Below, piece by piece: positions 1 to 3,000 of a DNA stretch of 8,050 nucleotides. Each line of letters begins with the position of its first letter. Position 1 is the stretch's first letter. A program made the position numbers. The stretch lies in NCBI RefSeq assembly GCF_003334785.1, contig NZ_QOWV01000036.1; one strand, 5' to 3'. Origin of the DNA: Escherichia coli (lineage in GTDB: Bacteria > Pseudomonadota > Gammaproteobacteria > Enterobacterales > Enterobacteriaceae).

Positions 1-3000
1 TATACGGAGCGACTAAAAGAAGCCGGATTACTGGCATCAACAGGGAGTACAGGCGACTCGTATGACAACGCGATGGCGGAGAGCATCAATGGTCTTTACA
101 AAGCGGAGGTAATACACCGTAAGAGCTGGAAAAACCGTGCAGGAGTGGAACTGGCCACACTCACGTGGGTGGACTGGTATAACAATCGACGATTGCTGGG
201 AAGACTGGGCCATACTCCTCCGGCAGAAGCTGAAAAAGCTTATTATGCTTCTATCGGAAACAATGATCTGGCAGCCTGAGTTCACAAATAAAACACTCTC
301 CAGGAAACCCGGGGTGGTTCATAGTAGCAAGGTGGCTCTGCCGGAAGTTATGGTAAAGGTATAGGTTGCCCCGGATGGATAACTATCCTTTACAGAGAGA
401 GGAGGTTTCGTCCTTGGTGATGTTTCCTGCTCAGAGCTTTCCGCATGTGGAGTATTTTAATTTTTTCTGATGTCGAGGTAATATGATTATTTACTTTTTC
501 CCATTTCAAATGGAAGAAAATGACACTTTTCTTGATGCCGAAGTTAAGTATCAGAAAATGAAGAATAAAGAATGTTATGGTGTGAAAGCTTCACACAAAA
601 CACCTTTATCCTTTCTTAAACCGAGCGATACGTTATACATCGTTGCTCATGGCAACACATCAGTTATTGGGACAGGTTCAGCAACTGGGCCAACGTTGAA
701 TCCCGTAGCATTAGCCACTCTATTAATGAACAGACGTTTACCAAAGAACTTCATAGATATCAGAGTGTTGTCCTGCGCCTCGGGGATACATTCGAGAACC
801 CCAGCCTTCGCACAACGGCTGAAAGAAATTATGAATGAACATGGGTATCATAGTCTGGTCGTTACCGGATACCTTGGTGAGGTTGATGTATCGAGAGACT
901 GGAGATTAAAAAATGATGATGGTATGGAGTTTTATTCCTTAAGAAAAAAAGGGATTATTCCTGTTAAGGATATATTAAGTGAATCCCAGAGAGCGCTTTG
1001 TGGTTCTGATCTGAAATACGCCCTTTCTGATTTCAAGAAACGATTTTGAATAGGAGTAGTGCACTGACGTCAGAGCCGTTATGAAAGTAAGCGGCTCGCC
1101 AGAACCGTATTGATATTTACTGAGAGCTCAGATCAACTTTCCAGGGCAACAGATCGCGTACCCGGTTTGCCGGCCAGTCCTGGATATGCTCAATGACGTA
1201 ACGCAGCCATTTTTCTGGCCCCTGTCAACGCCAAGATTATTGGCCGTTTTCGTCGCATTAGCTTACTTGGACAGCATGTACTTTATGAAGTGAATGATGA
1301 GGCCAGTCGTGTCAATATCCTGGCGTTGTAGGCCAGCGTCAGAATCCCCGTCATTCTTTGAGTGTCCGGCTTAGTGCTCATCAAGGGCAGCCAGCACAAT
1401 CAGTATCCTTCGCTGCAGCGGCGACTCTGTCACCCTCTGACCAGATGAGTGGCTTTGCAGGACAGGCTGATTTTAAAAACAGATTCATCAAAAGACGTAC
1501 CTCCTGGAGATGTATATAATATTATGAAAATCATATCCGTTACGGGAATTACTGTGGTGAATACAGAAAATGTTCATCTCTTTTCTGATTCATCTGAAAA
1601 GAAAACAGGTAAATTTTATTTAAAAAAACAATCCGGTAATTATAACTGTCCTGTCAGGGGAAGTATTCCTTCATACACGTTAATGCAGGCAACCGACAAT
1701 ATTCCTGATGACATTACTTTTAAAGCATATTACCTTCCCTACAAAAAAAATGATGTTACATCCCTGCCACTGGAAAAAAATTCCGATGTTAATTATTTTT
1801 TTACAGATATACTGGATGGATGTTCAGTTGGAATACATACAGAGGAACTGGTAACCCGCGTATACCATGCCAATGCCTTCAGATATGGTGAGTTTTTATA
1901 CCGGAAAGAGAAGATGAATTGCAGTTTTGCATTACGACGACAGGTAAGTATGCAGAATAAAATGATTAAAAATGCATCAGAGAATAATGCTAAAATTATA
2001 TCACCATGGCACTATGGACATCATGGTGAAAATGCTGTCTTTTATAAAACATTATTTTTCGGATACAGAGAGAATTTCTCCGGAAGCTGGTGTTTTTTGC
2101 GTCAGACATATGATATCCGTAACATGGAAAACTCATGGTTCCGGTAATTATGTTGATGAGGGATAATCTGTGAATGTTTTGAGTGACAAAGAGTACTCCT
2201 GAATGGATGATATATTATATCTGAATGGAAAAAGGGTCAGACTAAGAACGTGTAATATCTACGGCAGCAGGCCAGTAATGGGTTAAGTGATAACAGGTGT
2301 CTGGAAATATAGGGGCAAATCCACCCTCGATATGACTATCCGGTAGATATGTAAAAAGCCTTATTCAAATATAGTCAAATCTATTGATAGAACTCGTTTG
2401 TCAACTGAAAGTAAAAACATTCCATAAAGCTCAGAAATGGATATTGTCACAGAAATAGATATAGACAAACCAAACGCAATCTCTTATACTTTCAAAGCTT
2501 TATAGAATACTACTATGGGAGATTTAAATAGATATTAAACAAGGAGACTATGATTTTAACATGTTAGCAACCCCTTTACTAAATACAACTTTAGTTTATA
2601 TATTTCCTTTAAGTTAAAGGATAGCGGGAATACAATTTCACTTCGTCTCTATTAGTATGAATCGTAATAGATGAGATACAACAACTTAATAAGGTAACAA
2701 TCCCTTGCCGTATAGTAACACTGGACGGGGAGAGTATGCAATGCAAACAGAAAATGGAGGGTAAAAGATCACTGTTATTTTAATCTGAAAGTACAAGGAG
2801 CTATCTCTTTTAAAAGACAATAAATGTTATTTATGTTGTCTTTATTTGTTGTGTGGATATTTTTTGATAAAAGACAGGATTCTATATATGAATAAAGTGT
2901 TCTCTCTTAAGTATAGTTTTTTAGCCAAAGGTTTTATTGCTGTTTCTGAACTTGCCAGTCGCGTTTCTGTTAAAGGAAAACTGAAGAGTGCTTCATCAAT

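Follow-up and report, generated by a model that had tools for sequence, protein, structure and literature searches.

The closest described counterparts of the locus analyzed here are the aaiR-aaiS region in the Aai T6SS island of EAEC 042 and O104:H4 (pheU island), the IS1203/IS629-like elements of the IS3 family, and the transposition units of IS91. Elements of the IS3 family have the termini 5'-TG...CA-3'. The gene order in strain 042 was given as aaiO, two transposase pseudogenes, aaiR, aaiS (EC042_4581), two further transposase pseudogenes, aaiT, and aaiU (Table S3, Yasir et al., PMC6392122). IS91 uses the target tetranucleotides GTTC and CTTG and mobilizes adjacent DNA beyond terIS by one-ended transposition (PMC13181058). 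A search of the literature on aaiS or on the ORF1 protein described below gave nothing usable.

The locus is contained in a stretch of 8,050 nucleotides of Escherichia coli DNA (contig NZ_QOWV01000036.1 of assembly GCF_003334785.1) which is referred to as the window. Over its full length, the window is 99.9% identical to the E. coli plasmid pWP7-S17-ESBL-04_2 (NZ_AP022179; L001 8001-16051), where the corresponding region is an ETEC/EAEC-type virulence plasmid segment with many IS fragments. The analysis concerns the interval 280-482, which lies between the stop codon of a transposase remnant and the start codon of ORF1. With a probability of roughly 0.85, this interval is a composite junction at which the end of a dead IS1203/IS629-like element (280-321) meets the native upstream DNA of the aaiS-like ORF1 (322-482). 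The features of the window that are used in the following are:

1-279, plus strand: C-terminal coding remnant of an IS1203/IS629-like (IS3 family) transposase, equivalent to IS nt 990-1268, with the stop codon at 277-279.
280-321, plus strand: 3' non-coding end of the IS remnant (42 nt, IS nt 1269-1310), including the terminal imperfect inverted repeat.
About 297-321, plus strand: terminal imperfect inverted repeat of the IS remnant, ...CCAGGAAACCCGGGGTGGTTCA.
322-324: junction triplet, TAG in the window and TTG in many ETEC and IncF plasmids.
322-454, plus strand: distal part of the ORF1 upstream intergenic region, non-coding and specific to the aaiS-like ORF1 lineage.
357-365, plus strand: GGTATA hexanucleotide tract, 1.5 copies in the window and length-polymorphic between plasmids.
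455-482, plus strand: AT-rich proximal leader with the RBS GAGG at 475-478, 4 nt before the ATG at 483.
483-1049, plus strand: ORF1, 188 aa, annotated as hypothetical; a probable aaiS homologue with a putative CPD/Peptidase_C80-like fold.
1087-1222, minus strand: IS66-family terminal remnant that forms the right bound of the ORF1 segment, with GTAAGCGGCTCG... at 1087; a C-terminal transposase fragment.
About 2888-6982: eatA, a serine-protease autotransporter gene.

The end of the IS remnant was located by comparison with other copies of the element. Thousands of E. coli records contain IS1203 copies to which positions 1-321 are 97.5% identical (at least 80% of the segment is covered in 5416 records), and among the matches listed the IS1203 alignments end at 321 (...GGTTCA). 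An intact IS1203 of 1310 bp that is flanked by a 3-bp target duplication (GAT/GAT; L007) aligns with its nt 990-1310 to positions 1-321 of the window, and the likeness is lost after ...GGGG(T/C)GGTTCA. The remnant ends in ...GGGGTGGTTCA, in agreement with the TG...CA termini of the family, and the ~25 nt at its end form the counterpart of the left inverted repeat; the two ends of the reference IS1203 copy read TGAACCGCCCCGG(AAA/GTT)TCCTGGAGA... An earlier, sequence-only reading of the window had proposed a comparison with intact copies of the IS and had guessed the IS boundary at ~330; the comparison with the 1310-bp IS1203 moves this boundary to 321/322. That reading was correct in assigning part of the interval to the right end of an IS3-family element, as 280-321 corresponds to the terminal 42 nt of IS1203, and in placing the transposase stop at 279 (frame 1 ends with TGA at 277-279) and the ORF1 start directly after the spacer (ATG at 483). 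A contiguous alignment of 280-455 to one IS3-family element, which it had named as the outcome that would speak against an additional piece of DNA, was not seen, and the IS alignment stops at 321.

The IS1203/IS629-like element is a truncated, dead remnant and not an active IS. Compared with the complete element, only the 3' part is present (IS nt 990-1310 remain in the window, and nt 834-1310 remain in its sister plasmid L001), and the lack of the left end together with an internal stop makes it a non-mobile copy. In the annotation of L001, the remnant appears as an incomplete pseudogene that has an internal stop, and it does not contain the complete orfA-orfB with programmed frameshift of a functional element. 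A PADLOC search gave no match for the transposase remnant. In L001, the IS1203 remnant is fused to an IS2-like fragment which is itself split by IS600, and the region as a whole is a nest of IS fragments with IS2-like, IS600, IS1203, IS66, and IS91 pieces. The IS66 remnant on the other side of ORF1 carries the annotation of an IS66 family transposase fragment in L001 (9117-9218) and is common to L002, L003, and L006 up to position 1222, where the window alone diverges.

The distribution of the remaining 161 nt (322-482) was analyzed by a sensitive blastn search (11-nt words) of E. coli genomes (28 Gb) and plasmids (PLSDB, 7.3 Gb); the search covers these two collections, and an IS confined to other taxa would be missed. 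The block was identified with 95-100% identity in 133 E. coli records, at 44 chromosomal and 91 plasmid places, and in 69 PLSDB plasmid records which include plasmids of Klebsiella, Salmonella, and Shigella. Each genome contains the block in one or at most two places, and no copy away from ORF1 was found within the two collections. A full ORF1 is located directly downstream in about 131 of the 133 leader-bearing E. coli records. When the leader and ORF1 were used together as a query, 139 records reached a coverage of 80% or more. Some eight of them represent paralogues with 76% identity and no leader, so that a complete ORF1 comes after almost all copies of the leader. The block contains stop codons in all reading frames, and a six-frame tblastn comparison of 300-482 with all related loci revealed no match to a coding remnant (VasL, "kinesin", or transposase) beyond the locus itself.

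Within the block, a smaller unit is shared with more distant relatives of ORF1. Diverged paralogues (68-78% amino acid identity) share only ~25-28 nt of the upstream sequence (455-482), including the GAGG; the 78% paralogue in L012 shares TTTTTGATGTCGAGGTAATATG upstream of the gene, and the alignment to the 76%-nt paralogue starts at query position 134, which is position 455 of the window. These alignments suggest that the conserved gene unit begins at about 455, in which case 322-454 would be intergenic DNA specific to one lineage, and this segment is best read as passively carried, with a weak or activator-dependent promoter as something it may contain. The step in base composition that the sequence-only reading had placed near 455 is real (GC 0.483 for 280-455 and 0.259 for 456-482). 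Its description of the spacer as GC-rich applies relative to ORF1, the first 118 nt of which have a GC content of 0.297, but not in absolute terms, because the IS itself has a GC content of 0.50 and 17.5% of all 134-nt windows in the 8 kb sequence (mean 0.416, SD 0.073) are as GC-rich as 322-455 (0.485) or richer; the ~48% GC of 280-455 is only about one SD above the mean of 41.6%. Overall, what had been taken for a single spacer of unknown origin consists of two abutting pieces with a sharp edge at 321/322. Of the two origins that had been offered for the part beyond the IS, the original junction of the cargo was essentially right, as 322-482 is the upstream intergenic DNA of ORF1 and the IS meets the cargo at 321/322, while a further IS scar has no support in a segment that, in the E. 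coli genomes and plasmids searched, is found only as a flank of ORF1 and has neither a coding remnant nor flanking inverted repeats.

The chromosomal Aai island is the sole context in which the left flank of the block is not derived from an IS. This flank (...GGGCTTAAACATAG) is present in exactly 44 chromosomes, including EAEC 042, and is attached to the leader in every one of them. In EAEC 042, the locus is located just after tssM and tssH, and the order in RefSeq is a T6SS gene, an IS3 pseudogene, a frameshifted hypothetical gene, the ORF1 homologue, transposase fragments, and VasL. Because this order matches the order in Table S3, ORF1 is probably the plasmid copy of aaiS (EC042_4581), an assignment made by gene order only. 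The ORF1 protein is 96% identical to the product of the 042 gene at the aaiS position, and positions 320-1064 of the window are 97.9% identical to the chromosomal locus. The two organizations differ in two respects. Of the aaiR-aaiS intergenic region, which measures roughly 590 bp on the chromosome, the plasmid retains only the 161 bp nearest to the gene, with the IS1203 remnant in place of the rest, and the plasmid gene is separated from the T6SS operon.

One alternative, a scar of a second IS or a MITE that occupies 322-455 between the IS1203 end and ORF1, would fit surroundings that are full of IS fragments and a block whose left edge is sharp in several contexts. It is nevertheless very improbable, since the segment is found in the E. 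coli genomes and plasmids searched only ahead of ORF1, always with at least 95% identity and in no more than two places per genome, shows no transposase-like coding remnant in any frame, contains inverted repeats at chance level only (the best being 15 nt at 80%), and continues into non-IS DNA in 44 chromosomes. This alternative is largely refuted. Inverted repeats flanking ORF1, as expected if the gene were a MITE-like cassette, were also sought and only chance-level pairs were obtained. A different kind of alternative assigns a regulatory function to the DNA. A functional promoter or operator in 322-454, with an output set by GGTATA tract length or by an activator of the AraC family (AggR, Rns, or CfaD), could account for a tract that ranges from 1.5 to 15.5 copies between plasmids, for the membership of the chromosomal homologue in the AggR regulon (log2 fold change of -2.19 in an aggR mutant; Table S3, PMC6392122), and for the neighborhood of ORF1, which adjoins aap in L020 and lies near eatA in the window. 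AggR and Rns recognize the site WWWWWWWTATC, in which the A/T tract may deviate at up to two positions and which is located 21-23 bp ahead of the -10 element (PMC6392122). No site with at most two mismatches is present on either strand of 250-541, and the sole TATC sites within 322-482 (377-387 on the plus strand and 388-378 on the minus strand) have three A/T-tract mismatches each. Furthermore, no sigma-70 promoter (-35 and -10 hexamers with a spacing of 16-18 nt) with a score of at least 9/12 was found on the plus strand. The best relaxed matches (7-8/12) occur only in the AT-rich 453-487, and the best -10-like hexamers there (TATTTT at 453-458 and, by direct reading, TTTAAT at 456-461) are without a matching -35. 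The scan for promoters and terminators otherwise displayed minus-strand curiosities only, one of them inside the IS repeat. Read-through from the aaiA promoter can account for the AggR dependence in 042, as the flanking transposase pseudogenes change in step with the gene (PMC6392122), and the 15.5 copies in L020 (NZ_CP145709) are the sole long expansion among the loci inspected; the pAA plasmid L003 has one extra copy, and hexamer repeats so far upstream have no demonstrated role. Regulation of this kind is unlikely. The most specific version, in which the tract would act as a contingency switch on a stand-alone, CPD-like AaiS-like cysteine protease that originates from the AggR-controlled Aai T6SS island and now rides on ETEC/EAEC virulence plasmids beside eatA or aap, is highly doubtful.

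An even smaller probability is given to a regulatory RNA, that is, to 322-482 as a structured cis-regulatory element (riboswitch, thermosensor, or leader) or a small RNA that controls ORF1. The idea draws on the presence of a 160-nt untranslated stretch ahead of a gene that belongs to an AggR-controlled island, on a long imperfect hairpin that can be drawn for 322-495 (MFE of -43.4 kcal/mol), and on an upstream ORF of 31 codons (375-470) which, by direct reading, ends 12 nt before the ORF1 start. However, the MFE equals the level of shuffled sequences (z = 0.10; 106 out of 200 shuffles fold as well or better), and a scan of window positions 1-1300 against Rfam 15 gave no match at E ≤ 1. The segment 322-454 is wholly absent from the paralogues with 68-78% amino acid identity and is therefore not conserved across the gene family. 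Direct reading of the upstream ORF shows no Shine-Dalgarno sequence and, in its frame, three of the four SNPs among the loci are non-synonymous; as a leader peptide it was rejected, given that it has no Shine-Dalgarno sequence and no sign of constraint.

The position at which the likeness to the window starts and the DNA to the left of this position differ between contexts:

322, O104:H4 and 042 chromosomes: non-IS DNA of the Aai island.
324, IncFIA/FII plasmids (L002, L004): a 73-bp fragment of the IS91 oriIS end.
325, pAA plasmid (L003): a truncated IS2-like orfA.
352, pAST198 (L006): a 2.65-kb deletion of an L001-like arrangement that joins L001 5701 to 8352.

The start at 352 in the pAST198 variant is located just 5' of the GGTATA tract. 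No homology was found among the left flanks of the chromosomal, IncF, pAA, and paralogue loci, and the left contexts are therefore truly different. As all non-chromosomal forms have IS material that abuts the block, they are most simply explained as derivatives of the IS-bearing form. The sequence at the junction itself is GGTTCA-TAG/TTG-TAGCAAGG, and an alignment shows the triplet TAG in the window, L001, L019, L020, and the chromosomal copy L005 and the triplet TTG in L018 and L002. The TAG at 322-324 is possibly one copy of a 3-bp target duplication; the full-length IS1203 copy in L018 is bounded by two unlike triplets, ACC and TTG. The junction between the IS1203 end and the leader is found again in several plasmid lineages (L018, L019, and L020 among them) whose IS copies are broken at differing internal points: the IS is truncated at nt 834 in L001, interrupted by an IS2 in L019, and cut by an IS66-family element that leaves 57 bp in L020. 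Since lineages with differently truncated IS copies have the 321/322 junction in common, the junction appears to be old.

From these comparisons we infer the following order of events. An IS1203-like element would have inserted 161 bp upstream of the aaiS-like gene, IS-mediated rearrangements would then have distributed the gene among ETEC/EAEC virulence plasmids and IncF plasmids, and, as a consequence of this spread, the left boundary of the gene would have become fixed at the point of IS insertion. The chromosomal left flank joined to the left end of IS1203 with a TAG duplication was found in 0 out of 133 records; a simple IS1203 insertion is accordingly not directly documented in this set, and the chromosomal context is a likely but not a proven ancestral state.

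The IncF form carries traces of a further mobile element. Its left part, ...CCCCTTG, consists of IS91 nt 1-73 (the oriIS end, itself preceded by GTTC) and is joined directly to ATTGTAGCAAGG, with the right part beginning one base after the GTTC of the terminal GGTTCA of IS1203. The junction triplet of this form is TTG, as in ETEC plasmids such as L018, and the right edge of the transferred segment is located within the IS66 remnant, between ...ACATTGTTC and AG. In L002 and L004, the arrangement resembles an IS91 unit in that the ORF1 segment is located on the terIS side of the 73-bp IS91 oriIS fragment and in that the segment edges directly follow GTTC or CTTG; it differs in that the body of IS91 is deleted, and it is a feature of these related plasmids and not of the window. 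An empty site with the two IncF flanks contiguous was not found among the plasmids searched, and because no plasmid has the joined flanks the IncF copy does not represent a simple insertion. The IncF form may reasonably be read as the result of an IS91-mediated capture followed by an internal deletion. IEE-promoted excision of IS629 (PMC9943667) is a candidate source of the IS-less junctions near 322-325, but the IS91 signature explains the IncF junction better.

The gene that is carried by these rearrangements was characterized by profile and sequence comparisons. No significant match to ORF1 was obtained in an NCBIfam scan, in searches of PDB sequences with the single sequence and with a family profile, or with PADLOC. 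ORF1 has a weak match to Peptidase_C80 (i-E of 0.019), and Peptidase_C80 was identified at E ≤ 0.1 in six out of 12 relatives. Peptidase C80/CPD-like proteins are defined here by a clan CD fold and a conserved His...Cys dyad, and His56 and Cys98 are invariant in an alignment of 12 sequences. The ORF1 paralogues with 68-78% amino acid identity are also located downstream of VasL genes, and the family appears to be confined to E. coli.

As a mosaic junction on a virulence plasmid, the interval 280-482 is a routine product of the ordinary IS-insertion type and nothing new in kind. Its value is in the annotation of an IS-scrambled virulence plasmid, which becomes correct once the IS1203-like end is fixed at 321 and the other 161 bp are assigned to the gene as its own upstream DNA. 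The fixed 321/322 junction furthermore provides a marker for tracing the aaiS-like gene from a chromosomal T6SS island to ETEC, EAEC, and IncF plasmids. The more interesting lead is the unannotated ORF1, apparently a small, free-standing protein related to the toxin-processing cysteine protease domain; its linkage to VasL/T6SS genes is seen repeatedly.

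The 188-codon hypothetical gene ORF1 (window 483-1049, plus strand) shares 96% protein identity with a gene on the chromosome of enteroaggregative E. coli (EAEC) 042 (L021 7363-7929). This counterpart occupies the position of aaiS (EC042_4581) in the AggR-regulated Aai type VI secretion island, and the assignment of ORF1 to aaiS was made from gene order only. The VasL or tssH genes repeatedly adjoin homologues of ORF1, both on plasmids and on chromosomes. In some ETEC plasmids, the copy of ORF1 is missing its leader and its first ~77 nt, and similarity to the window begins at 560. 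A 468-nt ORF on pCoo (L025 860-1327) lies at the same position as these truncated copies and may itself be one of them.

In E. coli, Klebsiella and Salmonella, IncFIA/FII plasmids have a 73-bp fragment of the oriIS end of IS91 on the 5' side of the ORF1 segment. The location of this fragment in one such plasmid (L002) is listed below, together with the edges of the ORF1 segment and the variable sites of the ORF1 leader.

Features of the ORF1 segment and its leader in the window and in related loci
L002 3931-4003: IS91 oriIS-end fragment, 73 bp
L002 about 4003/4004 and about 4916: junctions of the ORF1 segment
Window 357-365: GGTATA tract, 1.5 copies
L003 (pAA plasmid) about 4030-4045: GGTATA tract, one copy more than in the window
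L020 (NZ_CP145709) 3088-3180: GGTATA tract, 15.5 copies
L002 about 4160 and L004 (a further IncFIA/FII plasmid) about 4154: GA insertion, equivalent to window position about 474

The edges of the ORF1 segment in these plasmids lie directly 3' of the tetranucleotides CTTG or GTTC, among them the GTTC in the terminal repeat of IS1203. Such a placement beside the IS91 oriIS fragment suggests that the segment was captured by IS91 one-ended transposition (PMC13181058).

Within the leader, the GGTATA hexanucleotide tract is polymorphic in length, and a 2-nt insertion (GA) immediately precedes the ribosome-binding site of ORF1 in the IncF-type copies (GTCGAGAGGTAAT vs. GTCGAGGTAAT). Direct reading of the leader also revealed a 31-codon upstream ORF (window 375-470, MDNYPLQREEVSSLVMFPAQSFPHVEYFNFF) that ends 12 nt 5' of the ORF1 start. 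This ORF is probably not translated, because no Shine-Dalgarno sequence precedes it and three out of four SNPs among the loci are non-synonymous in its frame. Two signals were noted on the minus strand, a sigma-70-like site (TTGAAA-18-CATATT, window 509-480) directed leftwards from the ORF1 start and, within the IS inverted repeat (window 312-300), a hairpin that resembles a terminator and carries a T-run; the counts of such signals were not above shuffled expectation.

Eight differences separate the window from its 99.9% identical sister plasmid (L001). Seven of these are substitutions (positions 13, 24-26, 28, 30, and 59) within the IS1203 remnant and the eighth is a 1-nt indel near 1898. 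The substitution cluster at 13-59 resembles a patch of gene conversion by another copy of the IS; alternatively, it may stem from the assembly of repeated sequence.

To the right of ORF1, the remnant of an IS66-family end (window 1087-1222, minus strand) is interrupted at 1222/1223 by a breakpoint that is specific to the lineage of the window. Across this point, L002, L003, and the plasmid pAST198 (L006) read ...CTGGC(C/T)CCACATTGTTCAG and the window reads ...CTGGCCCC/TGTCAACGCC, with the slash marking the breakpoint. When reverse-complemented, the remnant closely matches two sequences upstream of EC042_pAA061 that are listed as potential AggR-dependent promoters (PMC6392122, Table 1). Within 1087-1222, these potential promoters would be directed leftwards, antisense to ORF1.
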